DNA from: Pecten maximus
Lineage: Eukaryota
DNA: 64,000 nucleotides
Assembly (NCBI RefSeq): GCF_902652985.1
Contig: NC_047015.1
Span: 42,470,001 to 42,534,000, forward strand
Direction: 5' to 3'
The notes under the pieces are model-generated. The model did no database searches. It saw only the letters and a program-made list of their open reading frames with translations, and was not told the DNA's origin. How positions within the stretch are numbered: the first letter of the stretch is position 1; each line of letters opens with the position of its first letter. The position numbers were made by a program, and so were the translations under genes. This document shows, one piece after another, positions 13,045-37,734 of the stretch.

Positions 13045-14215
13045 TCACAAACGGTAAGAAATCTTCACAACATTTACAACAGTCTCAGTAATAGTCACGA
13101 CAAGGTACAAAATAAAGAATGCTATATCCAGGCGTCTCCCTAGGGATCGCCAAGTGGCAACAGTACCACGTAAGCTCAACTTATCATTAGTTTACATCGT
13201 CCTTCTCTCCCTCCACTCGTCCTGGCCTAAGTTTGCAGCAGTATAGTAACCATATAGGGATAGGTTTGTCGTCATTAGTGTTGTAAACGCACAGAGTTAT
13301 AATCACGGTCAACACAATCAGAGCGCTAATGATCAGTTTAATCATCAGAGAAACCGTGAGAATGGACACTGGGTCACTGGTGTTTGGGATACTGTCCGAC
13401 ATTATGGTCATGTACATTGTCAAAGTTAAAAGCATTGTAGTGGCGAACGACACTCTCTCCCCGGAATCCGCTGGCAGAATAAACGCCAGTAGGGTAACGA
13501 AATTCAACAGACAAACGGGCAACATTATTGTGTATAACAAGTATGTTGGTCGCCTTTCGAATGAGTATGATATAATTATATTTGAAGAGTAGTTGTTCAG
13601 AATGTGCTTTTCTATTCGATTCCTCGATGATACCCAAAGCAAGTTATGAGATCTGTCATTGTTTTCGCCCTGTGGATCAAGTTTAAGGTCAATGACTGTA
13701 TACGGTTCCATTACTGTGAAATATAAACTACAGTTGTGGACATCGTACGGGTAGTAGGTGATATCCGGTGAGCATGCCGATGTTACCATTTTAGAGTAAA
13801 TAGCGAAAGAATATCCGGAACTGGCAACTGTGATAGATGATGTCGCTGTGATAATTTCAGTGTCTACACCACTGGACAAGGTAAGGACTGGTGACCATAC
13901 CTGAGATGTAGAGAAATAAGATGTTTGGATGTTTCCGTACTTGGAAGGATTCCAGGTTAATTTTCCATCGAACCAGCCAAGATAAATAGCCGCTAGTACA
14001 GTAAATTTTCCCGCGACTGCATCGAACTCGTACAAATACGGCATAGTGTATATAAACGTTATACTCATGGTGTGATCCTGATTTAGTATAGGACGAATAT
14101 TCCTGGAGTAGTTTGACAAAAGGGTGGTATGAAGGGACGCCATGTTGTCATAGGATCCTGCTCGTGTGCTTACGAAGAGGTGACATAAAACTACTGTCAT
14201 GAAGTTATTTGCCAT
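13045..14215 (-). pseudogene. Single-exon Cys-loop subunit (array gene 2), one frameshift in the M3-M4 loop; recent pseudogene or assembly error
   Basis: The 342-aa ORF closely resembles gene 1 and stops at 13187. An intact M4 (TWRSLGRRLDIAFFILYLVVTITETVVNVVKISYRL*) continues in another frame to TGA at 13045. Confidence 0.9.
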
Positions 14216-14318
14216 AATTGCTACGTTCTAAACACCACATACAAATAAAGATTCACCTAGAACGTTTGCTGTCAAAGTCGTCAAAAGCAGTGATGTCGAT
14301 CTTAATTTGATACTGGTC

Positions 14319-14324
14319 TTTATA
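14319..14324 (-). promoter_or_regulatory. Putative TATA box of array gene 2
   Basis: TATAAA 104-109 nt upstream of the ATG, inside the 17-mer atactggtctttatatt shared with 3324-3340. Confidence 0.5.
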
Positions 14325-17300
14325 TTAACACCAATATCAATACGCTTTATCACTTACGATGTTAAAGAATGGGATATTGGTATACACCGCAGACAATTGA
14401 TCTGAGGACAGACAATATAAGTATACCGTAAAAAATCAATTCAACTCCTGAAATGCCTCCGAAACAGGCACCTTCGATGGTAATTAGCAGCAACAACGAA
14501 TTGTACCTCATAACATAATAGGTTTTATTTTGCAATTTAAAGGGATAATATCGACGAAATCGACCAAATTATCTATAACGTAAAAGACTGTCAGTGCGTG
14601 TAACCTAACAATAATTGAAGTTGTAATTAGCAGGATTAATGATTGGTCTTAGATCGTTATGTTTTGACAACAAAGGTATACGATAGACGTGTGTACACAT
14701 AAAAAATGGCGATCTGAAGATAAACTGTACATCCTGTTCGAGTGTGTTAGATACGTTTCATTTAATTACAATCAACATATATAAAATTATATTAGTGTAT
14801 TGAGTTATTTTCGTGTACAGAAAATTTGTACATAATGTACATAATGTACCTAAGGCAGTATCATACTAAGGTTTAACTTTCAAAACGGTCGTCAAAATAG
14901 AACTATCAGTAGTTTATTTGCCTTTAGATCTTCGGTTAATCAGCAATAATCACCTCATTAACAAAAGATTTTAATTGATAGACCTAGGCAGATTTTTTCA
15001 TTTACGAATCCTAATAGAGCAGAAAATAAACCAAATATTTTTTCATACTTACGACTTAGTACGTAATCAATTTCACAAACTCGCATGCATACATCAATAC
15101 CACTCACACACTGACATACCAATAGAAATTGTGAGTTAGATACAGTAATAAAAATAAATTAAAAACAAAAAGGATCCACATGTAGCACACCGCAGTTTTT
15201 CCCTCATACTTAACCTTATTATTATTCCATGCGGAGACAAGATGAAAATAAAATGTGGTGGCAGCGAACAACTACATAGAAAAATAACATACGAGGACAC
15301 GTGTTACAAAGACCACCACCACGCGGAGTCGAAACAAAGTACTCTGGAGGTTAACGAATTGCTGTTACATTTTATGTTGTTTCTACAGCTTTCCCTACTC
15401 TCGACCGACCTTCAACCCCTACTGGGGACATTGGCAAAACCTTAGATAAACGCCTGTTCTATACCGCTGGATGTTTACCGTGGGAGGCGACTTAAAGTGT
15501 GCCCCCTGCAGAACCAGGGTTTCTTGTGCCGTCTGTTTTCAGTGACATTAAACAGTCCAACATAATGCCGATACATGTATGCATCACTTAGGACCTTTGA
15601 TATTATTTGTTCGCTCTGTTCTTTGTTTTCTTCCGTAAGAAATAAACAAACAAAACAATAAACAAACACACAAACAGTTGTACGTATCCTATCAACGTGC
15701 GGGAGCTAACTTCAGTTGGTACTTTCCACAAACTGTTTAAAAAACAAACAAAAATTATAATTTATTTAGTAGTTTAGAGCTTGTCTGTTCTGACAAGATT
15801 TTCTAAACGATTGTAGTTTACAAACAAACCAGAGTTGTTCGAAAGATAAACAATAAGTAAGCACCTTAAAATACCAATTTAAGATTTAGATACAGGAGAG
15901 TAACAATGAACTAAACAGCACCATTTAGCTGTTTCATTCTTCTAGGACTCGCCAGTGATGCTACCGGCCAAAAGAGATGATTCCTAGCATTGGACTAAAA
16001 CAGATCGATGGAAATGTCCAAATCTAGATAGGGAAATGTTATAGACCTGTTATTTAATAGCTTTGATATTTCCAATATTGGATTTCCAAATATCGTCAAA
16101 TAAATGTGCATATTCCGAGCTGTGTAACTAGTTAAATCAATTAGTGTGTGACATACAGTTTACAGAAAACGTTTGGCACTAAGCAGGGTCTACTTCCTTT
16201 TAGACTGGAAAATGAGAATTACTCAAACGGAATATAATAACTTACTTACTCTAGTAATGTCATACCGTGAGGTAAGCATTTTATGTTATAAGTAAGTTAA
16301 ATGTCATCATTACGTCTTTTTGCTAAAATATATCGTAAATAGATATTTGATTGGAAGGATATAATATCGTGTCCCTTCCATATTCTGTCTTTAAACAACA
16401 ATTACTAGGAAAATGACATCGTAATTTCATCGTTGCTGTTATTATATATATCTATATGTCAATTTATACATTTTTGAGAAGCTCTGTAAAAATCAATATC
16501 AAAGATCAATCTTATTGGTAATAAATTCTTTAGTTGTGTTAAAAACATTCATAATTTGCACAACTAATTCCTAAATTGATTTGTACGTGTGTATTGTATT
16601 AAAATGTAATAGTTTGATATTCGATTGAACTATTTTCAGAAAAGATAATGAAAATGGATAATTGATAAAAATAGAAATGATCAGATACATTAAAAGAAAT
16701 ATGCATATAAACTATGTGTATAAGATAAATATATTTCGTCAATATGATTCAGGTGTTATACCAAATTGATCACTGATTTGCGACCCTAATCTTTATTGTA
16801 AAGCTTCAGTGATTCTTCTATGAGTACGTAAAATATATTGTAATTTGCATTAAGGGTCAACAAATATTAATTCTTAATGCCAAACGAACCTACCGTCCCA
16901 ATTGCAATATTCGAAAGGGACGACTTATTTTGAACCCCTTTCTCTTCTTACTACACATATTTTTCTTCTATTTTCTCCATTACTACTCTTTCATCATTTG
17001 GCCTTTAGCTGAGCGTTCCCCGCTCTGAGGGAGGTCATGGGTTCTGTATCTGTTTCTGTCTGCTTGTTGTGTATCTATAAGGATTGAAAAAAAGATAATT
17101 CGATCTTAGTACCTTTCAATCAAAAAATTAAAGGATGATTTAGTTGACCGAAATGAATGAAACTGTATCAAGTAGCCGTTTTGTTCTCCTAGGACTCATC
17201 AGTCATGATGAGGGCCTAAACATGACAAAGACACATAGTGATTTAATAATTGTTTTCGCATTAGTATTTGTATTCTGAATATGTAAAATAATATACCATT

Positions 17301-17424
17301 TATCTTGATGGTAAACAAAGAAGAATTCTGAATACTAAACGTTACAGCATATATGTACCAGCTGTATAACACCCCCCACCCCCCCCTGGCAACCGTGACA
17401 CTACCTCAAGTTTAGTCATTAATT

Positions 17425-17700
17425 GCGCGCTCACATCTGTTAGCTAGGTTACGGATTCATTCTCCTGGCCAGGACAATGCAATGTCTACAAAATTGGTTC
17501 TTGCTACTCCCTGCTTGACATTCGGCTACAAACCTGTGTGTAGGGATTGGTTCGCCGATATAATGTGACCAGGTTAAGTGTAATGCTACAATGTCCAGTT
17601 GTGTGTATTTCAGTGTGACGGCACTTTTTATTGGACCATATGTCGTTATTTAATTACCTGATTGTGTTATTAGGTCGTAAAACAACGCTAAACAACCAAA
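17425..17700 (+). mobile_element. Degenerate SINE-like repeat
   Basis: Contains aaattggttcttgctactccctgctt...gattggttcgcc...tataatgtgacc...tttcagtgtgacggcact, which resembles conserved central domains of invertebrate SINEs; highly diverged. Confidence 0.35.
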
Positions 17701-17786
17701 ATCATGCGTGATCATAATTTAGTGGAATATTGTCAGTGTGAACTCCTTTGAAACAAGACTACCACTGAACTAGACAGGTCTCACAA

Positions 17787-18882
17787 TTGGTAGATTTAGA
17801 CGATATGTTATTCCTACTATATTAACTATTGTCTCATTAACAGTCTTCACACTGAACTGAACAATACGGAAAACAATACATCAAATCGTCTCCCGATGGA
17901 AGGCCAGGTAGCGACCTTACTATACGATCCAATATGTCTACGGGGTGTTTCCTCTCAGGCTCCACCTTTCTATCACCGATAACTTCTTGTTGCTTCCCTA
18001 TTTTATAGCAGTAAACCGACCATTGTGGTACCGGTTTGTCATCGCTTGTATTATATATACAAAGCGTCGTTATCTCTGCCAGGACAATAAAAGCGCTGAA
18101 GATAAGTTTAATCACCAGGGAAATCGTGAGAATGGATACCGGGTCACTGGTGTTTGGGATACTGTCCAACATTATTGTCATGAACATTGTCAATGTTAAA
18201 AGCATTGTAGTGGCGAACGACACTCTCTTCCCGGAATCCGCTGGCAGAATAAACGCCAATAAGATTGCGAAATTTAGCAAGCAAACTGGTAAAATGATTG
18301 TATATACCAAATATGTCGGTCGCTGCTCTAAAGTAAATGACGCTTCTACAGTTGAGGTATAGTTTATAGTGATGTAACCATTTCGTTTTAAACTCCAAAA
18401 CAAATTTCAATATATTGAACATCTATAACTTGTGAATGAAAATTGACCAGAGTATACGGGTTCATCGCTAAAACTATAATTGAGCAATGATGGACGTCAT
18501 ATGGATAGTAGGTTATATTCACCGTACAGGACGAGGTCACGATCTCAGTAGCTATAGCTAAGCAAACCCTGAAGAAAATACAGTGATAGATGATGTCGTT
18601 GTAAGAACCACGTTGTCCACACCACTTGCTGCAGTTATAACAGGAAAGGAAAACAAACACCAATGTTGTACATTTGCCTGCAACTGCGTCAAAATCTTGA
18701 AAATATGTCATCGGGTATATAAACGTCATACTCATCGCATTGTCCTTGCTTTGTATAGGACTTATGAACCTGGAATAGTTAGAAAATAGATCGGTTTTGG
18801 GCCTTGCCATGTCGTCATAAGACCCAGCATATGTGCGCACAATGATGCCCAATAACACCATTACTAACGTGCCATTCTTCAT
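17787..18882 (-). pseudogene. Decayed Cys-loop subunit (array gene 3)
   Basis: Signal peptide plus GSYDDM start, Cys-loop CTVNITYYPYDVHHC, M1-M3 and M4 are all recognisable. It carries an internal ECD deletion (WxD...VWSP segment missing), several frameshifts (~18640, ~18560, ~18406, ~17945, ~17850) and a -1' E-to-K change (SGKRVS). Confidence 0.9.
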
Positions 18883-18984
18883 TCATATCTGAATGCTGTA
18901 ACTCAACCACCACTTTCAAGTAAAGAGTGTCACACTAGAAATGGGGGAATGTAAATACTAGGTCGTACACATTGTTTCTCTGAC

Positions 18985-18990
18985 TTTATA
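18985..18990 (-). promoter_or_regulatory. Putative TATA box of array gene 3
   Basis: TATAAA 103-108 nt upstream of ATG 18882. Confidence 0.45.
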
Positions 18991-19138
18991 TGGTCCCCTT
19001 GTTTCAACTTTTAGTAAAGGGTGCATGTACATAAAAAAAACAACACTTTAAACTATTTGCAATACATCTTCCATGTTATCCTTGATTGAGCGAAAAGAAA
19101 GTTATCAAATGTCATTAATGTGCTTCAGGAAATTTTAA

Positions 19139-19230
19139 GGGAAGGTAAATAAAGTCGTTCTCGCCACAGATAAAATCCAGGAAAGTTGAAAGGAAAGTAA
19201 ATAAAGTCGTTCTCGTCACAGATAAAACCC
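19139..19230. repeat. Two-copy direct repeat (52-bp period)
   Basis: ggaa(g/a)gtaaataaagtcgttctcg(c/t)cacagataaaa occurs twice. Confidence 0.85.
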
Positions 19231-20260: not shown

Positions 20261-20474
20261 ACTAAATGCTATTATCAGATCATGAAGAGTTAATATGTTT
20301 GTTGGGAAAAAAAACAGAAAAAAAAGTATAAACATTACAATTTATGAAGTAATATAGTTCAGATTGCAAAGGAGGAACCATTTAAATCGAAGGGAAACGT
20401 TAAACATGTTGTATTTGAGAATATTTACGTCATTTAAATAAAACATGAGTTTGGATTGTTAATACCGCCTGAGT

Positions 20475-20634
20475 TTGGTAGATTTAGACGATATGTTATT
20501 CCTACTATATTAACTATTGTCTCATTAACAGTCTTCACAGAACTGAACAATACGGAAAACAATACATCAAGTCGTCTCCCGATGGAGGGCCAGGTAACGA
20601 CCTTACTATACGATCCAGTATGTCTACGGGGTGT
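20475..20634 (-). pseudogene. Orphan M4-coding fragment, near-identical copy of the 3' end of gene 3
   Basis: 160 bp matching 17787-17948; translates KVVTWPSIGRRLDVLFSVLFSSVKTVNETIVNIVGITYRL. Confidence 0.9.
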
Positions 20635-22141
20635 AGATTTGCTAAACTATGCTCTCTGGAGCAATGAATGCCCCCCCACCCCCCTTCAGAAAATTCTTTA
20701 ATGACAAATAGTGTCAGGTTATTCTTAAATCGCCAAAGAAAATCGGAAGGATCTCGATTGAGGATCACTGATTAGATATTAAGAAGTACCCATTATTGTA
20801 TATCAATGTGTTTATGATATTGATTTGCCTATTGTTAATTGATGATTAGGAAATTTAAGAACCGCCAAAAAAGTGTCATTGTATGTATATACATATGATG
20901 CAAGATGTTATTGCTGTTTTACAAAGCACGTAATGCGAACAAAATACACTGTATGCACTTCATAAGTACACTGATACAATCAATCAATCTGTTTATTAAA
21001 GTACCATATATCAGAATATCATTGTACAAGTATATAGTTACAAAGTATATCTAACCAGTATAAAATACTGATATGCTAAAAAGAACTGTTACACTAAGTA
21101 TTTTTAGATAAATAAATCCAATCACAAATTATAATCCAGAGAGCAGGTGAAAGATAATATGTTTATTTGGTTTTAAATGTATGTACATGTATTGTTTTCC
21201 CCCTTGGTTTTAATATTTTCATGTCAATCATTTAACAGTACACTGATACAAATAATGTTCATATTGCATATTGCAAAAAAAAAAAAAAAACAGAAATCTA
21301 TTCCCAATAACAATGCCCAATAAGTGAGGATAAACACTAGTTTTTTAAGTATATATCACTACTTGAATAAAGGAAATATGGAAATGGCTTCCATTGTCTG
21401 ATGTGTTTGTTAAGTTATCGAGCGAACTGATGTCATTCAGCATTGATTTCTGTGATCCTTGCTCTATATTTACACACATGAAATGTTATCCACTGTGGGT
21501 TTCCGTGCAACACAATATATTTTGCTTTACTAAAGGCGGTATGTGTTAGAATTGGTAATATGTGCGAAGATGATGAAACAAGTTTTGTTATAAACATTCA
21601 TCTTGCTTTCCTCATTAAGTTCATATGGAATCTTGTCAAAACGTTATTATTGTAACATTATCTAGATTGTATTCATATTTCTTTGAATATAGGAGATCAC
21701 AAAGGAATCTATTTGGTTATATAACAACACCCTTTCAATGCACGTATTATTGTTTCGAATATACATTTTTCTTTGTGCTGCTTTGATTTAAATCTTTGAT
21801 AAATGAAGAATAAAACAATGTCAAATCCATGTTCCGTACTTCTATTAGTTAAATCGATATATATACATAATATATATCATACCTTGAGATATTGCATAAT
21901 TTAAACAGCGTATCTGAATTTCATATACGCATCCTTTCTAGTAACAAATGAATGTCGGTCACGTGACTGGGGAAACAATCGAGTTATTTAGCTGCCAAGA
22001 AAACTGCGAAATACTGAACTCCGAAGTAGGAAAGTCTGAAAAAAATGGGCTGGTGTACTGCATAGCAGCCCCCTACAAGACCACATACAGAAAATAACTT
22101 CAAATTCGGCGGATACACGGCGTAATCAGCGTCGGAGAACA

Positions 22142-23200
22142 ATGGCGGCGTCCCTAGAAACGCACAGCGAAAGACCCGGGGAAGACTTCCTGGATCAAAA
22201 AGCGGATCTAAAACTAATCAGGAACCACTGTCAACAGGCTCTGACTTCGCCACCAACTTTAATTTGCCAACAAATAGCGATGAAGAGGATATCGGATGGA
22301 CATGCAAGGATTGTAGCACCCTCTTTGACGACCCGAAAGCCGAAATGCTAGAATGCGAACGCTGTCGTTCCCACCACTGCATTGGATGCTTAGGGAAGTC
22401 AAAACAAGAATACAAGATTCTGCAAGACTCTGACTACATGTGGTTTTGTAGTGCTTGCATACCAAAGGTCAAGAAAAATATCGTTACGGATATGAAAATT
22501 GAAGAGCTGTGCCAAGCTATCTTGGAGAAATGTGAGAACAGGATATCAGAATTAGAAAGAACGATGAAAACAAAATGCGATGAGGATACTGTGCGTAAAT
22601 TAGTGAAGGATTTGAGAGGCTCGGATCAGGTAAACCCAGTCGAATGGCCAAGGCCACAGGAAGCAGGAGCGACTAAGTCGCAACCAACTTCAAACATTAC
22701 AAATATAATGTCCGAAATCAATGAGAGAAAATCTAGGGAATGTAATATTGTAATATATGGCATTCCAGAACATGAATCCTCAAACAGGGACGAAAGAATA
22801 GCACACGACAATGGAGTTGTCAAAGATATTCTTAGTACATGCGACACCAACATCAATGAAGGAGAAACTGTCAAGTGTTCCCGACTTGGCAAATACAACA
22901 AAGAATGCACAAAGGAAGAACGAAATCATAGACCTGTGCTGGTATCGCTGGGTAACCTGGAAACCAAAAAATCAATTTTCAAAAACATGAAGAACCTAGC
23001 TAAAGAGGAGAAATTTAATAAGGTGAAACTAAGCAATGATTTAACAAAAGCTGAGCGAGAACAAGAGAAAAAACTATGGGAGGAAGCTAAACAGAAACGT
23101 CAACAGAACCCGTCGGGGGGGATTCACATACAAAGTTCGGGGCCCACCCTGGGCCAGAAAAGTCACAAAAGTGAGGACCCCAACAGGCCAACACGACTAA
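22142..23200 (+). CDS. LINE ORF1 (PHD finger, coiled coil, RRM-like domain), frameshifted
   Basis: CKDC..CERC..HCIGC..WFCSAC PHD pattern; NIVIYGIPE and RPVLV motifs. ATG 22142 is 1 nt out of frame. Removing one G from the G7 run (23115-23121) restores the C-terminus FTYKVRGPPWARKVTKV...* (TAA at 23198-23200). Confidence 0.8.
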
Positions 23201-23250
23201 CAGAATCCAACAGCCACAAAAAACAAACTTCAATTGAGAATCTTAAATGT

Positions 23251-26127
23251 ATGTACACCAACGCCGATCAACTGAAAAACAAAATGTCGGAACTAAACAT
23301 CAGGGTAAATGTGATAAAACCAGATATAATAGGTATCACAGAGGTAAAAGCAAAAACTAGAATACAAAATATGAAAGCTTCAGAATACTTTTCAGACGAA
23401 AACACGAACTACAAACTGTTTAGCAAGAACATTGAAAATAAGGAGGGCAGAGGACTGATATATTTCATAAACTCGAAACTGAAAGCAGAGGAAGTAAACA
23501 TGGAATCATCATTCCAGGAAAACCTTTTCGTCGAAATAAGTATAAACAAAAGCACAAAAATCCTAGTAGGTCTCATTTATAGATCGGACTCGGGGACCGC
23601 GGAAAACAATAAGAAATTACAAGATCTAATAGAAGAGACAACACAGAAAGGCTATGCAAAAATATTATTAATGGGAGATTTTAACTACCCAGGAATAAAT
23701 TGGGAGACATGGAACACGAGAGGAGAAAGTACCGAAACACAGGAATACAAATGCATGCAAAAGCTACAAGACAATTTCTTTTTCCAACACGTGCAAGAGC
23801 CGACCAGATGGCGAGGAAAAGATAACCCACATATCGTTGATCTTCTTATAACAAGAGATGAACACTCGCTCTCAAGTATAGAATACCAAAGCCCACTCGG
23901 AAAGAGTGGCCACTGTGTCCTAATTTTTAATGTAATATGCAATATAAAAGTAAAACTAAGGAGTAAAAAGAAAATCTGTTATAAAAATGCTGATTTCGAT
24001 ACTATCAACAATGAATTAAACAAGATGAATTGGGATGAAGAATTACAGAGTTCAGGAAACATAAACGAAAATTGGATTATATTCAGAAAAATCATAAAAG
24101 AAGCAGAGAATAAACATGTACCGACAAAAATAATCACAGTTGGGAGGAACAACAAACATAGCTTTCCTGCAGACCAGGCAACACTGGAGGCCATCAAAAA
24201 GAAACACTCCCTTTTTCGAAAGGCGGCATCAAGTAAAGACATGGAAGTTAGAAACCAATATAATAAAGCCAGAAATAAAGTAAGGAAATTAACCCGTAAT
24301 TCAAGGAAAGAGTATGAAAAAACATTGCATTAAAAGCCAAAACGGATCCTAAAGCAGTTTGGAATTATATTAAATCTAAATCAACAACAAAGTCGGAAAT
24401 CGGAGATTTGTATACAAAGACCAACGACAAAACCTCAACAAAAGTATCATCAGATATAGGGAAAGCGAATAAATTCTTCAGTAGTGTATTTGTAAAGGAA
24501 GAAGTTGAAGTAACTCCACAACTAAACCAACGGGAAGTTATTGAGGAAATGACAACTCTGAATAATACAAGGGAGAAAGCATTTAAACTACTGATCAACC
24601 AAAAACCGGAAAAGTCATCTGGACTGGACGAACTCCATCCAATGTTTCTCAAAAATACAGCCTCGTCATTATCAGGCCCTTTAACAATAATATTCAATCA
24701 ATCACTATCAACAGGAACTCCCAGACGATTGGAAAAAATCCCGTGTGAGTGCTATCCATAAGAAAGGCGATAGAAGTGAAGCAGGCAACTACAGACCAGT
24801 CAGTTTAACATCAGTGGTATGCAAAATTCTGGAGACATTAATAAGGGAACATTTAACCAAATTCATGAGATCCAACAAATATTTTTCGGATAAACAATAT
24901 GGGTTTATATCTGGAAGATCAACAAGTCTTCAGCTTTTGGAGGTTTTGGATATATGGACAGAAGCCCTGGATAAAGGACAGGTTGTAGATTGTATTTACA
25001 TGGATTACCAGAAGGCATTCGATACAGTTCCACACAATAGACTCCTCAATAAACTAAATTCATACAACTTCTCCAACCAAATAATCTCTTGGATAGCAAA
25101 ATTCTTAAAAGGTAGACAACAAAAAGTAACTGTGAATGGTGCAGACTCTGACTGGACTGAAGTCACATCAGGAATTCCTCAAGGCTCAGTGCTAGGACCA
25201 TTAATGTTTGTCATCTTTGTAAATGACCTCCCTGAAACAGTTCAATCGGATATGTACCTTTTTGCAGACGATACCAAAGTATTCAAAATAATAAAAAGCG
25301 AGCACGACAGTGCAGAGCTTCAAAAGGATCTGGACACAATGTGTAAGTGGAGTGATACATGGCTACTTAAGATGCACCCAGACAAATGCAAACATATGAG
25401 AATAGGCAAGGGTAAAGGAAGAGGACATGATGAACCCGAACCGGACTACCATCTCAACGGGAAATACCTGCAGAAAACCAAACAAGAGAAGGACATAGGA
25501 GTAATCATCGACTCCGAGCTTTCGTTTGACGAACATATATCTGAAAAAGTTAAGAAAGCGAACTCTATGTTTGCACTCATCAGAAGGACTTTCCAGTTTA
25601 TGGACACCAGGTCTTTTATCCCATTATATAAATGTCTGGTAAGATCCCAACTGGACTACGCTAGTCCTGTGTGGGCACCTCACTTACAAAAACACATTGA
25701 CAAGATAGAAGGGGTTCAAAGAAGAGCAACCAAGTGTCTCCCGGGAATGAAGGAATTGACCTACAGCGAGAGGCTGGAAAAACTCAAACTACCAACTTTG
25801 GCATTCAGAAGAATTAGAGGAGATATGATAGAACTGTACAAAATAATAAGCGAAATATATGATAAAGAATGTTTTAATGGTATCATTTTATGGAAGAATG
25901 CTGCTGAACGCAACAGTACCAGAGGACATACCAAAAAAATATTCCCTAGACTATCCACAAATATGCTAAGAAAAAACTACTTTTCAAACAGAACAGTGTC
26001 AATCTGGAATAAATTGCCAGAACAGGTTATATCAGCATTAAATGTAAACTCCTTCAAAAACAAGCTAGACGATCACTGGAAAAACCAAGAACTTTTCTTT
26101 AATTACAAAGCATCAATTAAATCATAA
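23251..26127 (+). CDS. LINE ORF2 (APE endonuclease plus reverse transcriptase), two frameshifts
   Basis: YTNAD, ITE, GDFN and SGH (for SDH) endonuclease motifs; NYRPVSLTS, DYQKAFD, GIPQGSVLGP and FADD RT motifs. Frameshifts at the A-run 24317-24322 and at ~24716; start position uncertain. Confidence 0.92.
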
Positions 26128-27741
26128 ACAATGTATAGTAGACCGGACAGAAGTACTATATCAATCTCATGTATTATTTTGAGTCTGGTATAGAGGACTT
26201 TAAAAGTCCTGAACCAGAAATAAACTTATCTTATCTTATCTTATTAGAATAGTTAACAAAATAACACAACATATAAGCAATTTAACGCATAATGTATTGA
26301 ACAAAATATAAATATGGACAAAAGTCAGCGGTCTATACATTTATCCTTATAAAATGTACAGCAACAACAGATATTAATACTTCTCGTTAGGTGTATAGTG
26401 TTACAGCTGTTATGTCAATTGAACCAACGATCTGCAACTAGTCCAGTAATCAATAACATACGACCAGTAACGCAAATAATCAATAACAGTTAAAACATGA
26501 TTATTTGCTCTTGCATAATATTTTGTCCAATTTTTTCATGTTAAATCAATAGATTGTCGAATAAATACATTTCAAAAGGATGAATCTATCTAGGAAATGT
26601 AACATATGATTTCTTTGAAAATATAATATTGAATTAGTTCCAGTTGTACATGTAGAAAACAAAATAGCATCAAATATATAATTTAATCGATATATACTGT
26701 AGTTAATAGAAATGACATACAACACATATTTATGATTATGTAATCCTGAAGCTGTCTTTTAAACAATCATCTCTGTTTTCCAAAGTTGTACACTATCATT
26801 ATCTTTACATGAAGCAGGAAGATTCCGTATATTGTCGTTAGGTGTCGTAAGTTGTCCAGTATAAGAAAGAGTTGTTTCGGAAAGTTACGGTGATTGGTGG
26901 GAAAAAAAAAGATGATGTGATATAAATTTATATGCAACCCCAGATAGATATAATAAATATTTTTCGATCTTTTCAGTGTAGCTTCTTGATGACGTAATTA
27001 AGAATTCTTGCACACATAACAAATTTTGCAGAAACTTTTCAAAGTGAACGTCGAGGCCAAAAATAGTATGGATTGATAAATTAAGGATCTTTAAAAGGAG
27101 GGGATGTAATATGAAGTTTATCAAACGAGTTCAGTAATTTGATGTGTCTCTAAGCAAGTCAATGTGAAACTATTGAATATAATTTCATAGATCATTTGTC
27201 TTACTTTTTTATATGCTTCAGGAGTTAATTGAAATTAAAATCGTGATATTTGGTGTCTTTCGACTTCTTTTGGGTATTCATTCTTGTCCTTAAACGAATG
27301 CCAGACAACATTGAATATTCTCTACAGCAGCACTGAATTTGTTCTAACAACGTTTGACTCTATTAGCAATACAAATTCGGTATTGTTATATAATGACCGT
27401 ATTACCAATTATGTTCGTGATCATGCAAATTGGTTCGTCAATGATTCAAATGACGTCCAATTCATAAATGTTGTTCTTCTAAACTTTATAAATTCGATTC
27501 TAGCGTTACATAAAATGCTTAAATTAGAATTGTTTGAAATATTTACAGTAGATATGAAATATTTACAAATACCAATTAGATAATATACAAATACGGGGCA
27601 AAAAAAATAAAATAAAAAAATAAATAAAAAAAAAAACACATCAAAAAGAGGAAAGTACGAACCAGGCACATCTATGTATCTATGTATCCTGTGAGTTACT
27701 CCCACACAGTCCCTCAATTCTAAATAAAGACATTTCTCAAA

Positions 27742-29049
27742 TCAACCTATTTGACACATTATCCTTACGATATTGAAGATGGTCTCTGTAATTGTCAGTA
27801 AAGTAAATATAACCAACATTACGCAATCCAAGGATCTTCCGACCTCTGGCCACATGGGAGAATACTGTTTCCTTATTTCCTGTTCACTTCTATTGTCAAT
27901 TGATTCTAGGTTATTAGTATGCCCTGGCTCAAGATCAGTCACTTCCAGCTTATGTTCAGACGTAGAATCCCTAATTCTGATTTTCCTGTATAAACATAGA
28001 ATGCGTAATAGCCACAAAGGAATGGGTTTGACGTCACTGAGTCGGTTAATATATAACGTCATGATTACCGTGAAAACTATAAGACTGCTAGTGATGAGCT
28101 TGATCATCAAAGAAATTGTGAGAATGGACACAGGGTCACTGGTGTTTGGGATACTGTCCGACATTATTGTCATGTACACGGATAGGGTCAGTAGTATTGT
28201 TGTGGCGAACGACACTCTTTCCCCGGAGTCCGCAGGCAGAACAAATGCCAGCAGGTTAAGGAAATTCAACAGACATACCGGAAGAAGAAAATTGCACATC
28301 AAATATGTTGGACGTCGCTCTATCATTAATGCAACTTCAATGAATGTATTTGTGCTTTCAATGTTGTAAGTACGGATTTCTGAAGCACCGAGTTTCCACA
28401 ATAAGTTACTGTCTGCTCCAGGTAATATATATATGGTGATCAAATACAGACTGACCTCATTCATCGGTTCCTGTGTTGTAAATTGGAGAATACATTTGTG
28501 GGCATCATAAGGATAATAAGTGATATCTGGATCACAATTTGTGGTCATCACACCACTCATAAGAAACGAAGCCATCCCTGTATTGTCGTACAAAATGGAC
28601 AAATCTCCATTTTTTATTTTATTTATATAAATGTCGTCGGCACCGTTCGCAACTACAAACGTCGGCGCCCATACAACAGTTTCACGCATTCTCACCTTCT
28701 CGATGTCACCATAGTCTGAAGGAATCCACGTCATCATTTCGTCCCTCCATGTGACAAAGAGAGACCCCGTGGTCACCATCCTTCCATTTACAGCATCAAA
28801 ACCATTCAAAGACGTAAGGGTGTATATTACCTTGATCTCTAGTACATTGCTCTGGTTCTGCAACGGCCGTATATCTCGATTGTAATTCGCCAATAAATCA
28901 GAATGAAGTTTAGACATGTTTCCATAGGAATCAGCATACGAATACCGAGTTATAAAGCCTATCATGAGAATGACTTGTACTGTGAAACTAAGTCGGCAGA
29001 AATTACACTCGGAGTGATACCAACAGTGACAAACTCCCATTATGGTCAT
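27742..29049 (-). CDS. Single-exon Cys-loop ligand-gated ion channel subunit, nAChR-like non-alpha type (array gene 4, intact, 435 aa)
   Basis: Cys-loop CDPDITYYPYDAHKC; VWAP; ERRP; M2 SGERVSFATTILLTLSVYM; four TM helices; no loop C CC. The start may be the second ATG (29040). Confidence 0.95.
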   Translation of the reverse strand: MTIMGVCHCWYHSECNFCRLSFTVQVILMIGFITRYSYADSYGNMSKLHSDLLANYNRDIRPLQNQSNVLEIKVIYTLTSLNGFDAVNGRMVTTGSLFVTWRDEMMTWIPSDYGDIEKVRMRETVVWAPTFVVANGADDIYINKIKNGDLSILYDNTGMASFLMSGVMTTNCDPDITYYPYDAHKCILQFTTQEPMNEVSLYLITIYILPGADSNLLWKLGASEIRTYNIESTNTFIEVALMIERRPTYLMCNFLLPVCLLNFLNLLAFVLPADSGERVSFATTILLTLSVYMTIMSDSIPNTSDPVSILTISLMIKLITSSLIVFTVIMTLYINRLSDVKPIPLWLLRILCLYRKIRIRDSTSEHKLEVTDLEPGHTNNLESIDNRSEQEIRKQYSPMWPEVGRSLDCVMLVIFTLLTITETIFNIVRIMCQIG

Positions 29050-30567
29050 AACTATCTCGCACTTTTACGTCGATTATTGTACGACATTCATCCAACTTCT
29101 TGATTAAACATAACGCTATCACCACTTTGTGTGTTGAACACAATATTTACACTGTCGCAATGACAGCTAATGCACAGGATGATTTCATGTATGGTCCCCT
29201 TCGGGTGGAATACGTATCCTCTTGATATACTCGGATTGGACAGACAGGCATTATACAAACAACCCTTTACGTCAATATTGCATGAAATCGATAATCATAA
29301 TATGTTGTAGAATCTAGTGTTATTTGTAGCAACCTCAAAGACAACCCAGGGGCCTGGGCTATGGCCTACTTCAGAAGTGTACCTTACCTTAAGGTACACT
29401 TTATAAAAACTATCAAAGCAATGCTGTCAAATGATCTTATATCCTCAGGAGTAGAAATTGCTGCAAATTATGAGCTCAAAGATGTAGGTAAATCAATCAA
29501 TATGTACCATAATCTCAAAAACATGTTAAAATTTGAGGCACTTTCTTTTAGCTATGTCAATAGTTTACGAAAGTGATATAAACGTACCTACATGTAATTT
29601 TGGTTCTTGTACACCGAAACTATTCAGTAGAACAATTGTTTGTGAAATTTTGTGTTGAGTAATGATTGTCAAAATAAATAGATAAATAAAACACAAAAAA
29701 ACCAAGTTGCAGGATGTATGAAGGTCTATTTTTAGAAAAACCCAACAATTATAGGACTATGGTCGTTTTTGATAAATAAATACCAAGACCAAAGTAATTA
29801 ATTTTCAAATCTGTTACATAGTCATCAGTTAGGTCCGATGTTTTTCTTTTTTAAATTAATGAAAAAATTAACACTCCAGTTGTCACACGAGCCATATTCT
29901 TAAACCCTTCATTTGGGTGTGTTTTGTTGTGTTTCTGTTTGTTTGACCGGAATAGCCGAGCGGAAAGCCGGATGGAAGGGCAGGTCGAATGCTATTTTAG
30001 CTGAACGACCGGTCGTACCGAACGGAGCAGACAGTAACTTTCGGGAAACAACCAACCAATTGAAAAAATAGACTTTTGAAACATCCCTTTTGTATGGAAA
30101 GTTGAGCCAGGGATACAATGTCTGGCAGCCACTGATTGGCCAGTATGTAATGAAGTTACAAAATAGATATGTAGCCTGATAGGTAACTAACCATAAGAAA
30201 TATTGATGTAAAGTCCGATTGATTTGTGTTTCAAAAGTTCATGTCATAATTATTAACAGGTAAACATTTCAGATTTTTGATAATTTTAACTGCGAAATTC
30301 ACTCATTTTCAAAATGGCTACACTGGAAAAAAAATTGAACTGAAGGACCCAACTTTTTTTTGATTAAGTGTTATATGAGACCCTAAACCTTTGTTATAAA
30401 CCATAATTGCCATATGGAATTCAAGAATTTTAATGATATACTCCAAAACGTTAACACTAAAGTCTATGGAAAAAAAAAAGGTTGGTTGTGCCCTAAAGGC
30501 CGGCCGGAGCCGGACGATGACCAAACAGAACCCGACGCTGGCCGGACGCTGGCCGAACGGTTCGTAA

Positions 30568-30670
30568 GTGGATACTTCCTCTTGTAATACACTCAGATTG
30601 GACAGGTATGCATTATCTCAACAATCTAACAATTAATATTGTATGAAATCGATAATCACACACGTTGTCA
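30568..30670 (-). repeat. Orphan duplicate of the gene 4 upstream region (29204-29310)
   Basis: gtgga..tac..tcctcttg..ata.actc.gattggacag....gcattat...aacaa......aatattg.atgaaatcgataatca is shared between the two sites. Confidence 0.8.
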
Positions 30671-31868
30671 TTATTTGTTATATTATGGGAGTTGCTGGAG
30701 AAGATCAAAGCTCGGATTGTGATGATTTATCTGGATATTGATAGAACTGCATACAAAATTTAAAACATAAGTCTGATACACTAAAATAATAATTAATATT
30801 AAATTAAAAGCAAATTCAATGAGTCTCTTTGGGTCTCAACACATAAACAAAATATTGGTAATATGGGAATTCTGCATTTTGCTAACACTCACATCATTGC
30901 TTTATCGTATTGATCCGATATTTATTTTAACCTGAACTATGCACTGATGTACCGAAGTAGACTAAACCAATGAATAAATCGAAGAAAAAATCATTTTAAT
31001 CCTCATGAATATGAAAATTGTTTTCAGCAGATTATATTCAACCACCTTATCAACGAAAGGTGGTGAACAAATGTAACGTCTTTTGGTTTGGTTTTATATT
31101 GTTTAACGTCCTGCCAACAACTTGGGTCATTTAAGGACTGATACCTTTTCGGAATCTTAGAGGATATAATTCCATATAGTGCTTCAACTTAATGATTCAT
31201 CGAGACAGTAACTTTAACCGTAAGCACCTGAAGCTACTGTCACAATGATAAAGTCACTATAAAACCCAGATGGGATTTGTACTTATAAGGTTTCGATGAC
31301 CTGATCAGTATTGACATTCAAGTGGCGTTTCGAACTAAACCAAGGTTACAAACATAACAAACAAAGATGGCATAATGTTTACACAACATTTTAATATGTG
31401 TACGTACTTATTCTGTCGTGAAATTTAAACATAAACCGATCATCTCTGAGTTAACATTGAAATCATGTACAGTCGTTACATATTTATAGTAAAATAGGAC
31501 CTACTTAGATCATATACCCGTATGCATATTTATTGGAATAATCTTAGTGAATTTCGGACATTAGAAACTCATTTCTCTGATCTCATGAAATTCTTTATAA
31601 ACAAATGTACTGTATATATTTAGTACTAGTAACATAACTTACATCTTATTCTGAGAGACCGAATGGTCAAATATATCGGTGATAACGTAAATTGGTCTCA
31701 CCAATGATTAAAATGACGTCAAATTCAATGATATTTTCAACTGAACAAATACGTGTATAATATTGATATCAGAAGCTTTCACAGAATGTTTACAGCGTAC
31801 ATATAGTGTTTATCAACGTTTACAATATATATCTATATATACAAGGGCCTGCAATAGCTCAGACCCTG

Positions 31869-31900
<32 letters not shown>

Positions 31901-32229
31901 AACAACAACAACAAGCAAACAAAAACAACAACAACAAAACTAAAACAAATATACACAACAGCATATTATTACATTCAAGACAAAACGTAATAGCAATTGT
32001 AGGCCTAGACATTATACATAACATAATATCCTAACTAATGGATGTTTGGACACTGTTAATTATCTTGTATCATATATAATTGGTACACTGGACACAAACG
32101 GGTAGTATTAACACTACAGCGTCACGTTTTAGGGGAGATCAATTCATTTACTACACCAGGCAACGGCACCTCTAAACATAGAAAAAAACCCGCATTGTCA
32201 ATCCAATCATACGTTCCAAAATTATCATA

Positions 32230-33530
32230 TCAACCTATTTGACACGTTATCCTAACCATATTGAAGATGGTCTCCGTAACCGTCATTAAGGAAAATATAC
32301 CCAACATCATGTAATCCAGAGACCTTCCTATCTGTGGCCATGTTGCAGCATGCTGTTTTCCTGCATCGTGGTCAATGTCATCGTTACTTGTCGCGGTTTC
32401 TTTAGGATGTTCAAATTCAATATCTGATACTTCAAACACGTTGTCTGCTTTCGAGTCTTTAAGTGTGATTTTTCTGTAGAAACAGAGCATGCGCAACAGC
32501 CAAAGAGGAATTGGCCTGATGTCGCTGAGTCGGTATATATTTAAAGTCACGATTACTGTGAAAACTATAAGACTGCTAGTGATAAGCTTGATCATCAGTG
32601 AAATCTTAAGGATGGACACAGGGTCACTGGTGTTTGGGAATACTGTCCGACATTATTGTCATGTACACGGATAGGGTCAGTGGTATTGTTGTGGCGAACG
32701 ACACTCTCTCCCCGGAGTCCACAGGCAGAACAAATGCCAGCAGGTTGATGAAATTCAACAGACATACCGGAAGAATAATATTATACATCAAGTGTGTTGG
32801 TCTTCGCTCAACAGTTAAGGTAACTGCAATAAATGTATTTGTATTATGAACGGTGTATGTCTGGATTTCTGAATTGCCGAGTTTCCACAATAAATTACTG
32901 TCTGCTCCAGGTAATATGTAAATATTGGTTAGATAAAGTCTGACCTCATTCATCGGTTCCTGCGTTGTAAATTGGAGAATGCATTTGTGTACGTCGTAAG
33001 GATAATAGGTGATGTCTGGATCACAAGTTGTGGTCATCACACCACTCATAAGATACGAAGCTATTCCCGTGCTGTTGTACAAAATGGACGAATCTTCATG
33101 TTTTATTCCATTTATATAAATATCCTCGGCACCGTTTGCTACTACAAAAGTCGGCGCCCATACAACAGTTTCACGCATTCTCACCCGTTCGATGCCACCA
33201 TAGTCTGATGGAATCCACGTCATCATTACGTCCCTCCATGTGACAAAGAGAGACCCCGTGGTCACCATCCTTCCATTTACAGCGTCAAAGTCGATAAAAG
33301 ACTTGAGCGTATACAGTACATTGACGTCAAGTGTATGACTCTGGTTCTGTAACGGACGTACATCTCTGTTGTAGTTCACCATTAAATCCGAATGAAGTTT
33401 AGACATGTTCCCATAGGACTCACCATTGGAATGCTGTACTAAAATACCAATAACTAGGAAGATTCGTATCGCTATATCAATTCGAAAAGGAGTACATCCG
33501 GAGGGATACCTGTTGCGACAACGTTTCCAT
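32230..33530 (-). pseudogene. Single-exon Cys-loop subunit (array gene 5, close paralog of gene 4) with two 1-nt insertions
   Basis: Colinear with gene 4. One extra base just after ATG 33530 (run 33524-33526) and one at ~32640 in the M2-M3 loop; also an L8'P change in M2 (TTIPLTL). Confidence 0.9.
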
Positions 33531-34899
33531 TCTGATCACCTCTATCTCGCATTCGCATGTCGATTAGTTTATTACATTCATCCAATTCTTGTCTATACAT
33601 TAATTAGAAAATGCTACAACCATTTGTTCATTTGAGCATGATATTTGCACAGTGGCATAAACATCTAATACGCGGGATTCTTTGATGGTGAGATTCCCTG
33701 GAGAAATACCCATTCTCATGACAGACAGGCGTTATCTAAACAAGTTTATAGATTTATAGTACATCAAATCAATCAACACAATGCACAACATCAATATGGA
33801 CATACCATGTAGCTTGAAGAATATGGCAGATCTGATTTTGACAACATACCCATAAGATGATGATATACATATAGATGTACAAAAGCACCTTAAATTATTG
33901 CAGTTTGAATCTTAAAGAGAAAAAGGATTAACTAAATGTTAAAACAGTGTCACTAATATATGACTAACGGTTATATATCACATGGACTACTACAGAACCA
34001 AAGAAAAAATCTTAGAAAGAATGTTTAAGCCCCACAATCTCCCCATGGTCTGAACTTAGAATCAAACAAATCCTACACACCAGAATTGGCTCGATTTTAT
34101 TATTATATTGATCATTTATGATTTTAAGATTGCTGATATAGGGGGTTGGGTTGGGGTTGGGGGCAGACGTTATACGCTCAATTAATGTTCTTCTTTATTA
34201 CATTTATTATTGTGTATTCAAATTTTGACAAAACTTTAGTTAATGTTTCAGTGATTAATCACGCGCATTTAACTATTTAACACTTTATATGTACAATGTA
34301 TACGTGTCAATGTACTTACATGCTTATAAACATAAAACTTTATCAAGCTAAACTTCATAATTCCTAATGGATTGATCATCAGTTAATTTAATATGGATTT
34401 ATCATCATTTAATTTAATTCAAACCTGCTCAGTTACGTCAACAATTCAATCGTTAAGTGCAATTAACATCTAAAATTAGAAAATGAACTAACCTTGCGCG
34501 CGCGCCGAGCTACATCCCTGATGACTAGCAGATGAACATGAGTTTGTTTATCAAATGATGATTCAATAGTTTAATAGTGTATCTTTAAGTTTTCGATCTG
34601 AAGCCTTATGGCTCATTATTATGTAGATAGAAACATCAATTTCAGCAACATATTTACAATATGTAAATTAGGAGATTGGTAAAACTGTAACTGATGAAAG
34701 GAATATATAGAAACATTCAACAGCATATATACAATTTACAAGAGAAGTTAGTGGATAGACAAAGCAATATATATAACTGGAGATGAATACATAGAAATAT
34801 TATTTTCAACAGTAAATAAACAATTTTAAAGAATAGGGAGGGGCTGGACAAAACAATAGGTATAATTGGAAATAAAGACATACAAATATGATATTGATA

Positions 34900-36060
34900 T
34901 ATACTAAAGGTTGGAATCTCAAACGTATTAAACAGCTTAATTGCGAATACTTTCCAAGATTACATAGCTCTTTTTAATACGAGCAGATAGCAGATGGATA
35001 TTTTTAAATGAAGAAGGGCGGTTACAGCAATGTTTAATGAGCCTTTCACGAATATCAACATAAAGAGGCCAAATAAGAGCAAAATAGAACTCGTCCTCTA
35101 CATGGTATTGGTTACAATAGCGACATAACCTATTCGCCCTTGTGATATTGCGATACCGGCCATCTTCTATATAAACTTAATGCGATTAAAGTCGTAGATT
35201 CGAAATAAGTCTATGTAAAGTTGTCAACAATGAATATATATAAGTAATATATACATGACATTTCAATAAATTCATTTCTTGCTTGAATAAAAACATCGAT
35301 CAAACTCTGCGCAAATCAATGTAAAAATACTCTTCCGTTATCAACCAGACATAACCCAAACCAAAAGACAACAAAAACTTTTAACTTGACAACGCCAATT
35401 ACAATTTCTATGCTTACCATTCCACATGTCTCTATACACTGACTTTAGAACAATATTGTCGCATTTAATCAATTTTAATCAAAATTTGGTTATCCGACAT
35501 TTACTAATGATATGTAATGGCAAAAGACTTCATTCCGAATAAATCATAAAATATGGTGTGCTGGTTTTAACATTTAAAAAAATCCTTCTCAAAAGTCAAC
35601 ATGAACCTTTTCTAATTTGTCTAAACCCCATGTTTCGCAACCGTTATCAAGAATAGAGGAGATGTAAACATAAAAAACCATTCAGTTTAGATTATACGTT
35701 AAGAAATTGTCAACACATTATACATGCATTTACGGCCTTGTTTAGCAATATCAACTTGAGTTTTTGTGAACTAGTTAAACACCACATCTAAGTAGTTGAA
35801 TCGATCAACAATCACTATTTCGTTGCCATGGAAGTAAAATCTTTCAATAGCTCGCAATCTTCCGATTTTACGAAATACAGCTTCTTTTCAGCATCGACTG
35901 TCAATCGCCAACTGCCGCTATATTGTTTTAAGGAATAAAACATTTTCTGTAAGCTAGAGGCAGATTCTAAGAAAATGACAGTGTCATCTGCGTACACAAG
36001 AAGAAACAGGGAAACATCTCTTAAGAATAAAGTGTCACAGGAGGAATTGATTACCTTCAG
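34900..36060 (-). mobile_element. Decayed 5'-truncated LINE (RT C-terminal half)
   Basis: LFLLVYADDTVIF RT motif near 36000. C-terminal IEDGRYRNITRANRLCRYCNQYHVEDEFYF zinc-knuckle-like segment at ~35040-35170. Many stops and frameshifts. Confidence 0.85.
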
Positions 36061-36489
36061 TTCATTATCAAAGCTGATAATTTTCCCTGTTAATTCATGA
36101 TAGATAATGTTGTGATTCTATCCACTCCTTTTGTTTTCCTTCGCCTTTGGGATTCAGATGCATGGCTTTGATCGCCAGTCCTGCATCCCCCAAAACAAAA
36201 CAGTTTGAGCATGCGTGTAGAACTCATTTTCCATGGTTTATTAAACAGAGAGCGGAGCACCGCGTCAGAGATTCCCCGTAATCAGTAGATAGTGTCCCCG
36301 GTTTGTTGATTGTAGTTATGAAAACTATGGTATTGATTCTCATATTATCATCAATAAGGTTTATGATCTATCTAACATATTTTGTTATTTAACCTTATTT
36401 TTTGAAGTTACGAAAACATATACGGCCTAGTCATTACTATCCTTTATTTACTGTAGATATTCAGTAAACGCAACATAACCTTTTCCTAA

Positions 36490-37734
36490 CTAACCTATGC
36501 GGTACAAAATACGAACCAAATTATATATGGTTTCTACAAGGGTAATACCTGTAAATACTATAAAGAATATAGTGTCCAAACTTCGCCCGATAGAGCGCCA
36601 CGTGATAGAAGATGTGTCGGTTGTCTTTGTTAGGATTGATTTGTCCAAATCTTCCTTTTCTATCACATCTTCGGCCGGACGATCTTCACAGTGGCTTCGG
36701 TCTTCTTTGTTACCAACTCTATTCCTGAATCTTGCGATACGCAACAACCACTTTGGAATAGCTTTGCGTTCATCAGTATGGTTCAATTTCACACTTAAAA
36801 CCACTGCCAGCACTATCATACCACTGTACACAAGTTTGATCAGCAATGAAATCGTGAGAATGGACACCGGGTCACTGGTGTTTGGGATACTGTCCGACAT
36901 TATAGTCATGTACACGGACAGGGTCAGTAACATCGTGATAGCAAACGATACTCTTTCTCCTGAGTCAGTCGGCAGAACAAAAGCTAGAAGGTTTGAAAAA
37001 CTCAATAAACAGATGGGGGTAAGAATATTTAAAATGAGGTAGCTAGGGCGCCGTTCAATGGTTACAGATATTTCGATATATGATACGCCTATTTCTGTAA
37101 AGTTCCTGTATTTAAAATCGATAATGTTCCATAGTAAATTCAGCTGCGCTGCAGGGTACACCTCTTTGGGATTGATTACGAATTCCACCTCGCGGATCGG
37201 TTCTTCTGTTGTCAATGTTATCAAACAGACGTGGACATCATATGGGTAGTACGTGATATCCGGGTCACAAGTTGTCGTCATGACAACCTTGATAAAGTAC
37301 TTAGCCATCCCGTCAGCAGTGAACGCAATCGAGGTATCCCCAAACCTTGAAGTTCTCGTGTTAATATCGTCTGCACCATTAGCCACAAATACCACCGGGG
37401 CCCACACGTCCGACTCTGGAAATGTCACTTTCTCTATATTTGCGTGGCGCACCGGTTTCCATTTCATTTTCTCATCCTTCCATGTCAGGTCAAGTAACCC
37501 CATCGTTGTCATTCTCCCATTGACTACGTCAAAATTGTTAAGTGATTTCAATGTGTATCGTACATTAACTAATAACTTTTTTTCCTGGTTTTCAAGAGGA
37601 CGAACTTTCCTAGAATAACCTGCCAAAAGGTCGGACTTGAGGTTAACCATATCTCCATATTTGGCAGCGGAGACACTTGTGAAGAGCATCGACCATACCT
37701 GTATCAGTAGGATTTTCTTACGAGTATAATCCAT
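36490..37734 (-). CDS. Single-exon Cys-loop ligand-gated ion channel subunit, nAChR-like non-alpha type (array gene 6, intact, 414 aa)
   Basis: Signal peptide; Cys-loop CDPDITYYPYDVHVC; ERRP; M2 SGERVSFAITMLLTLSVYM; four TM helices; no loop C CC. Confidence 0.95.
   Translation of the reverse strand: MDYTRKKILLIQVWSMLFTSVSAAKYGDMVNLKSDLLAGYSRKVRPLENQEKKLLVNVRYTLKSLNNFDVVNGRMTTMGLLDLTWKDEKMKWKPVRHANIEKVTFPESDVWAPVVFVANGADDINTRTSRFGDTSIAFTADGMAKYFIKVVMTTTCDPDITYYPYDVHVCLITLTTEEPIREVEFVINPKEVYPAAQLNLLWNIIDFKYRNFTEIGVSYIEISVTIERRPSYLILNILTPICLLSFSNLLAFVLPTDSGERVSFAITMLLTLSVYMTIMSDSIPNTSDPVSILTISLLIKLVYSGMIVLAVVLSVKLNHTDERKAIPKWLLRIARFRNRVGNKEDRSHCEDRPAEDVIEKEDLDKSILTKTTDTSSITWRSIGRSLDTIFFIVFTGITLVETIYNLVRILYRIG

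Follow-up and report, generated by a model that had tools for sequence, protein, structure and literature searches.

A short homogenised patch in a tandem array of intronless nicotinic receptor-like genes of Pecten maximus: probable gene conversion between diverged paralogs

Why do tandem receptor genes with deeply diverged ligand-binding domains share one short run of almost identical DNA? The question is raised by a stretch of 64,000 nt of the scallop Pecten maximus (the window, on contig C1 of genome G000), which carries six intronless genes resembling nicotinic acetylcholine receptors (nAChRs), g1 to g6, in tandem and all on the minus strand. They are six of the eight members of a cluster, the other two, gA and gB, lying 1-12 kb to the left of the window. 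The extracellular domains (ECDs) define three clades, A (gB, gA, g1, g2 and g3), B (g4 and g5) and C (g6); since each is also represented in other genera of scallops, the clades predate those genera. A first-pass annotation of this DNA had the ECDs sharing a third of their residues or less, which is correct for A-B and A-C pairs (31-33% identity) and too low for g4/g5 against g6 (48%). We observed homogenisation of silent sites between the three deep clades only at one patch, along with nested tracts and a dependence on linkage. The patch was probably left by repeated gene conversion, in short tracts, between linked paralogs.

The patch codes for the end of the second transmembrane helix (M2) and the M2-M3 loop, as placed by alignment to the alpha-7 nAChR. 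As a 61-mer it starts at 13356 in g2, 28118 in g4 and 36854 in g6 and varies among these genes at 2 of 61 bases, which bears out the identity claimed in the first-pass annotation, down to the position of a 35-nt core. One change each in the core had also been ascribed to g1, g3 and g5; we found one substitution each in g1 and g3 and, in g5, a one-base insertion at 32639/32640. The copies in the window are as follows.

9403..9463, minus strand: patch copy of g1, with 6 differences from g2 in 61 nt, 1 of them in the core
13356..13416, minus strand: patch copy of g2, core at 13371-13405
18126..18186, minus strand: patch copy of g3
28118..28178, minus strand: patch copy of g4, core at 28133-28167
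32606..32667, minus strand: patch copy of g5, with a one-base insertion
36854..36914, minus strand: patch copy of g6, core at 36869-36903

A search of the 918-Mb genome with a 33-nt core, allowing up to 3 mismatches, returned 7 matches, all within the cluster (g5 was missed through its insertion). The patch is also the longest invariant peptide of the cluster, with 18 codons across six of the seven scored genes (the next longest has 9); gB has one change inside it. The closest protein relatives of the cluster genes come from Mizuhopecten, Ylistrum and Argopecten, and the patch peptide is nearly invariant in all scallop homologs. Named homologs include XP_069125528.1, XP_069125529.1 and XP_069125531.1 from Argopecten, XP_060071528.1 from Ylistrum and OWF48659.1 from Mizuhopecten. 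One relative, P0014, has an ECD identity of 32-41% to the three clades, like the distance between the clades, and deviates at 4-6 of the 20 patch residues, compared with 0-2 between most members of the clades; the peptide is thus not fixed across the whole subfamily. Trees placing P0014 inside or outside the three clades were both acceptable in approximately unbiased (AU) tests (0.42 and 0.47).

At degenerate codons for identical residues, g2, g4 and g6 agree at 15 of 18 sites inside the patch and at 21 of 94 outside it. Permutation within degeneracy classes gave P 4e-5 for the best 18-site window, by a scan statistic that allows for choosing the best window, and 2e-4 for the longest run. In five further trios with one gene per clade, the window statistic gave P 0.001-0.006; the longest-run statistic was not significant for two trios with gB (0.53 and 0.79). 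The retention of synonymous positions noted in the first pass is therefore real, at 15 of the 17 degenerate codons with their third base in the 61 nt instead of about 20. Synonymous difference between clades is 0.58-0.61 in the ECD and 0.45-0.77 in M1, M2 and M3, and falls to 0.19-0.28 in the patch and 0.00-0.08 in its 11-codon core. The condition under which the first pass would have given up its claim, silent divergence in the patch no lower than in the neighbouring helices, thus did not hold. The intact genes gB, gA and g1 carry synonymous changes inside the patch, and a ninth, distant cluster gene about 25 kb left of the window has 4-7 synonymous differences in 5-8 scored patch codons and shares no DNA with the others. 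GC content at third codon positions (GC3) within the patch is raised in four of seven genes, g2, g4, g5 and g6 (11-13 of 18-19, against about 0.40-0.44).

The wider family served as a control. This genome holds at least 150 matches to it; we took 117 of the 141 outside the cluster, leaving out small contigs, stops and short frames, and 105 of the 117 had an open reading frame (ORF) of at least 900 nt. With L123 dropped as misaligned and g3 left out of the family tests, the alignment comprised 104 intact ORFs and 7 cluster genes (111 genes), and 3192 of 6105 pairs were testable. The null of the silent-site tract test was calibrated: P fell below 0.05 in 135 of the 2876 distant, unlinked pairs. 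At a transmembrane (TM) identity of 72% or more, tracts were detected in 25 of the 46 linked pairs, in 6 of the 38 that lie far apart on one contig and in 2 of the 34 whose members are on different contigs. Of the 21 other clusters, 11 passed a within-cluster Bonferroni correction, and 20 of 30 linked tracts overlap M1-M3, with a tract DNA sequence specific to each cluster; L048 and L052, with an ECD identity of 42%, share 15 of 15 synonymous codons in M2. We then considered runs of at least 12 identical residues. Synonymous difference inside and outside such runs was 0.55 and 0.62 in 121 different-contig pairs, 0.34 and 0.53 in 42 linked pairs (P 0.004), and 0.29 and 0.56 in 18 pairs of this cluster. 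Long invariant peptides thus do not have this effect by themselves.

Within the family we also noted short M1-M2 tracts, shared between diverged neighbours and with a GC3 of 0.62-0.82 (L048 with L051/L052 on C18, L058/L065 and L063/L066 on C17, and L079/L096 on C1), which may reflect GC-biased conversion or local codon bias.

Inside the cluster, longer tracts between closer paralogs are nested around the patch. One runs from M1 to the patch:

28126..28311, minus strand: g4/g5 tract, identity at 51 of 52 synonymous codons, compared with 78% along the entire gene

Its P of 0.0005 is the floor of 2000 permutations. In g3, a segment of the M1 end and M2 is g2-like, with 3 of 72 nt differing against 20 of 72 immediately upstream, and gA and g1 share 53 nt exactly. 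In 12 of 14 between-clade pairs the best tract falls in the patch. A tree of the patch sets gB, gA and g1 apart from g2-g6 (100/99), a split that follows chromosome order and cuts across ECD clade A, and the patch rejects a grouping of g1 with g2 (AU 8e-5), which protein ECD trees join at 87/92 to 97/90. Runs of discordant sites in quartets gave P 0.025-0.039 in 3 of 6 quartets, uncorrected and weak.

The patch retains 2-3 synonymous differences in 18-19 sites among g2, g4 and g6, compared with 35 of 151 in the ECDs of g4/g5 and 32 of 162 in those of gA/gB. If these sites are neutral, g2, g4 and g6 last exchanged sequence more recently than the ECDs of g4/g5 and gA/gB diverged. The first-pass proposal of ongoing conversion is supported as to conversion, the likeliest cause, and goes too far with "ongoing", since the silent differences only date the patch to after the youngest duplications in the cluster. 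Its further suggestion that the patch seeds crossovers that swap ECDs found no support: an ECD tree and a post-M3 tree (21 rows each) recover the three clades with identical membership, and no ECD-swap chimera between clades occurs among the 21 proteins.

Two side observations may bear on exchange elsewhere in these genes. Around the Cys-loop (codon columns 187-200; gB, gA, g1 and g2) clade A has a second patch of low divergence, where 11 of 72 synonymous sites differ, compared with 0.37 for the ECD, and where gA and g2 are identical over 37 nt. At the right edge of the M2-M3 patch, the Argopecten protein P0008 shares a Lys with g5 (SILK), and the post-M3 tree joins the two (86/91). The ECDs of g4 and g5 are nearest each other despite that grouping, and an older g4/g5 exchange in the ECD is possible.

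Other scallops and other alleles provide two hints. In the M1-M2 linker, all five Argopecten clade-A proteins read PAES, and PADS is found in all five Pecten maximus clade-A genes and in Ylistrum P0010. A single clade of the four Argopecten clade-A proteins with an ECD is rejected (AU 0.0012), and the tree requires 3 changes of the D/E state; a species-wide residue across older lineages would fit what conversion predicts. The second hint, a weak one, comes from short-read contigs compared over 27700-37800. In all three DNA runs, contigs resembling g4 carry linked synonymous changes at two sites (28186 and 28189), and in two of the three a T at 28132, the letter of g2; the g6 contig starts at 36892 in all three, where the reference alone predicts 36885. 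Judged from these contig ends, there may be a g4 allele that matches g6 over at least 30 nt, and tracts may thus be segregating. Run X6, which we guess to be RNA, has a few low-depth pieces on g4 and g5 and gives no evidence on expression. A search of sequencing runs with 221 nt of g2 found words in 5 of 24 runs among the rows listed, all under one species label and none an RNA run; with 20 words, it was too weak to prove absence in other scallops. A metagenome scan with an alignment (A1) gave 44 pattern matches, with no relative among them.

Several observations weigh against conversion as the explanation. Within the cluster, GC3 in the patch is not raised in gB, gA and g1 (8 of 18), and only 8 of the 14 between-clade pairs are individually significant. 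In the family, GC3 exceeds its control in just 10 of 20 tracts; at a TM identity of 60-72%, P<0.05 was reached in 3 of 19 other linked pairs against 6 of 7 in this cluster; and the pairs are mutually dependent, so that the Fisher P of the linkage comparison is overstated. Where the difference outside the runs is at least 0.5, the 22 other linked pairs are indistinct from 120 different-contig pairs (P 0.29), which makes this cluster an extreme case of a family-wide tendency. Two clusters show the reverse pattern, with the ECD homogenised and the TM region diverged: L043/L047 (C4) and L132/L142 (C19), with 101 of 111 and 102 of 107 ECD synonymous codons identical. Separate trees for the ECD and the patch, proposed in the first pass, conflict only in part: g1+g2 is rejected, as described above, yet the patch fails to reject clade A (AU 0.17) and ECD DNA fails to reject gB+gA+g1 (AU 0.10), so that the conflict is suggestive only. 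The cross-species comparison was made at the protein level and says nothing of within-species homogenisation of DNA; D/E is moreover a conservative replacement that could arise in parallel, at a site upstream of the patch. Finally, the tract is unusually short for genes so diverged, and an exact match of 35 nt is less than the homology usually deemed necessary for recombination in animals.

These points have to be set against the alternatives. Strong protein constraint with local codon bias or chance, and no exchange at all, could be invoked because the peptide is nearly invariant in scallop homologs, because the segment was chosen after the fact and because some M2 tracts of another subfamily have a GC3 of 0.7-0.8, so that codon bias may contribute there. 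The scan statistic, however, corrects for the choice of segment, and codon usage alone predicts 2.1 identical codons of 18, where 15 are observed; the patch mixes ATA/ATC/ATT and TCG/AGT/TCC, several of these codons being rare (0.07-0.13). The Cys-loop peptide, equally invariant, has diverged at silent sites (0.62 A-B and 0.70 B-C; 0.36 A-C), and different-contig pairs with invariant runs of up to 35 codons stay near background. Protein-level selection is thus not sufficient, as the first-pass annotation had held, and this explanation, already largely refuted, is highly improbable. Chimeras from unequal crossovers, a mutation cold spot confined to the patch and artefactual assembly are very unlikely as well. 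Long tracts between close paralogs (g4/g5, L075/L105, L141/L144) are compatible with crossovers as well as with conversion, and frame breaks occur in three of the six window genes, of a kind that long-read errors can cause. The same clades nevertheless lie on both flanks of the patch, unlike the expectation for a single crossover, and a cold spot would not track linkage. Short-read contigs of three samples enter the g6 patch and break within it (in X3 two contigs jointly cover it), as a real shared repeat requires, and the patch is therefore not an assembly artefact.

An overlapping element at the nucleotide level (a DNA-binding, small-RNA or RNA-binding-protein site shared by the cluster), under purifying selection that fixes the synonymous sites, had been offered in the first pass as the alternative. 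It would account for a core that is very tight (0.00-0.08 between clades) and shorter than a typical conversion tract, for its same position in nearly all deep pairs, for the confinement of the patch sequence to this cluster (7 genome matches) and for this cluster being more extreme than others. Our searches lent it no support. Seven RNA folds gave z from -0.40 to +0.76, none of them stable; the alignment fold had a covariation term of +0.67 and a compensatory change in 1 of 17 pairs; an Rfam search of 8000-40000 found no match at E<=1. The central 22-mer, with up to 2 mismatches on both strands, had 7 matches, all of them cluster copies (control, 5), and the codon-aligned antisense frame closes after 26-59 codons in g1, g2, g4 and g6. 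Over the TM region there are long ORFs on the plus strand, but their third codon positions coincide with those of the genes, so that they cannot hold synonymous sites. Intact genes vary at the synonymous sites of the patch, and tracts of other clusters are unrelated in sequence and position. An overlapping structured RNA or antisense gene was accordingly rejected: the searches showed neither a stable fold with covariation nor an Rfam match, and no antisense frame that would constrain the sites. We consider a selected nucleotide element in general unlikely. It is conceivable, if doubtful to a slightly greater degree, that the patch is also an exonic element spread by conversion, for example a protein-binding site through which the choice of expressed gene within the array is coordinated; it would then amount to a cluster-wide regulatory code written into the pore-coding part of an array of orphan Cys-loop receptors. 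CTCF-like exonic sites occur in protocadherin exons; compared by eye, the patch does not seem to fit such a site.

If short-tract conversion between linked paralogs is indeed the cause, it would start where the copies are most alike, in M1-M3. Tracts overwriting a diverged ligand-binding domain or clade-specific helix residues would either not form or be removed by selection. Those confined to the 18-residue invariant peptide of the pore mouth and M2-M3 loop would alter no residue, which is why they could fix. The restored DNA identity might then keep the site open to a further exchange, and a common gating-coupling segment would be kept under differing ligand-binding domains.

The genes themselves are laid out as follows; g1, g4, g6, gA and gB are intact and g2, g3 and g5 have frame breaks.

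9093..10262, minus strand: g1, clade A, intact and intronless; ORF with PF02931 and PF02932, start and stop
13045..14215, minus strand: g2, clade A; frame break near 13190 in the M3-M4 loop, with M4 in another frame
17797..18882, minus strand: g3, clade A, probable pseudogene with an 86-nt ECD deletion and several frame breaks
27742..29049, minus strand: g4, clade B, intact; ORF with both domains, start and stop
32230..33535, minus strand: g5, clade B; an extra base inside the patch and a Leu-to-Pro change in M2
36490..37734, minus strand: g6, clade C, intact; 414 aa (P0001)

For g5, a pseudogene and a partial assembly error are both possible. All five window ORFs tested contain Neur_chan_LBD (PF02931) and Neur_chan_memb (PF02932), and the best solved relative is the alpha-7 nAChR (E 3e-36). 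By alignment, the C-x13-C Cys-loop is present, as is a Glu at -1' (GER/GEK) before M2, replaced by Lys in g3; the GER motif of g4 we take to mark a cation-type channel. Aligned to alpha-7, g4 lacks both the vicinal Cys-Cys of loop C and the loop B Trp, and it was rejected as an acetylcholine-binding alpha subunit. Single-exon ORFs in a tandem array are what characterises the intronless nAChR expansion of bivalves.

Other features of the window lie between and beyond these genes.

6388-6721: tandem array of 33 nt units
20485-20673, minus strand: isolated piece encoding the end of a clade-A M4, similar to the 3' end of g3
22126-26124, plus strand, between g3 and g4: retroelement of the long interspersed nuclear element (LINE) type in several frames, with a cysteine-rich N-terminus, PF14529 endonuclease and PF00078 reverse transcriptase
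about 30050-30500 and 31090-31140, between g4 and g5: very high-copy repeats, with contig depth up to 3e5
43326-45005, plus strand: 560-codon ORF, TRIM-like, with a B-box zinc finger
47740-48806: tandem array of 22 nt units
49513-53078, minus strand: DNA transposon pieces, with a weak DDE_Tnp_4 match under the curated cut-off
56298-58727, plus strand: 810-codon open frame without a Pfam match, with stretches that appear hydrophobic
61383-63217: tandem array of 40 nt units

Regional conversion is a known, textbook process, and one study on hybrid scallops reportedly found gene conversion (PMC2818637); what is notable here is the short island shared by deep paralogs. The nearest parallel is the regional conversion described for the clustered protocadherins of fugu, in an article that cites Noonan 2004 for zebrafish and human (PMC1852091). 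The likeness lies in tandem single-exon units in which the end that confers specificity diverges and another region is homogenised at silent sites, with a sequence specific to each subcluster. The converted protocadherin region spans several domains, is >99% identical and has a raised GC3 in all groups (PMC1852091), whereas the scallop cluster shares about 60 nt between deep clades with an ECD identity of 31-48% and a raised GC3 in 4 of 7 genes. Regional conversion has also been suggested for cephalopod protocadherins (PMC9068888). In birds, conversion between the tandem receptor paralogs TLR1A/TLR1B and TLR2A/TLR2B likewise spares the ligand-binding region and homogenises other parts (PMC6107061); these are gene pairs with a long converted and a short protected region, in contrast to eight mostly diverged scallop genes with a short shared island. 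For red and green opsins, a review describes selection acting on conversion tracts (PMC3924837): selection decides where conversion fixes, with uneven divergence along the duplicates, as it would here. The opsin pattern is a peak of divergence in a homogenised gene, and the scallop patch is its mirror image, a trough in a saturated one.

The cluster genes are members of the intronless tandem nAChR expansion of bivalves, which numbers 138 nAChR genes in M. yessoensis (Jiao et al. 2019, PMC6896357), and share its intronless, tandem structure with a ligand-binding and a membrane domain. In its main text that study accounts for the family solely through retroposition and tandem duplication, and the terms "gene conversion", "concerted" and "synonymous" do not occur there. 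Our literature search, whose coverage excluded most subscription journals, found no paper on conversion among these channels. If the patch is the product of conversion, the bivalve nAChR expansion, with over 100 genes per genome, would evolve as a mosaic in which binding domains diverge and pore and gating segments are shared within each cluster. Trees built from whole genes, and dates of duplication in this family, would then be biased, and cluster neighbours would be predicted to retain compatible pore interfaces. Conversion would also be seen to persist through a stretch of about 60 nt in genes with flanking sequence close to saturation at silent sites, a natural case that bears on the question of minimal homology.

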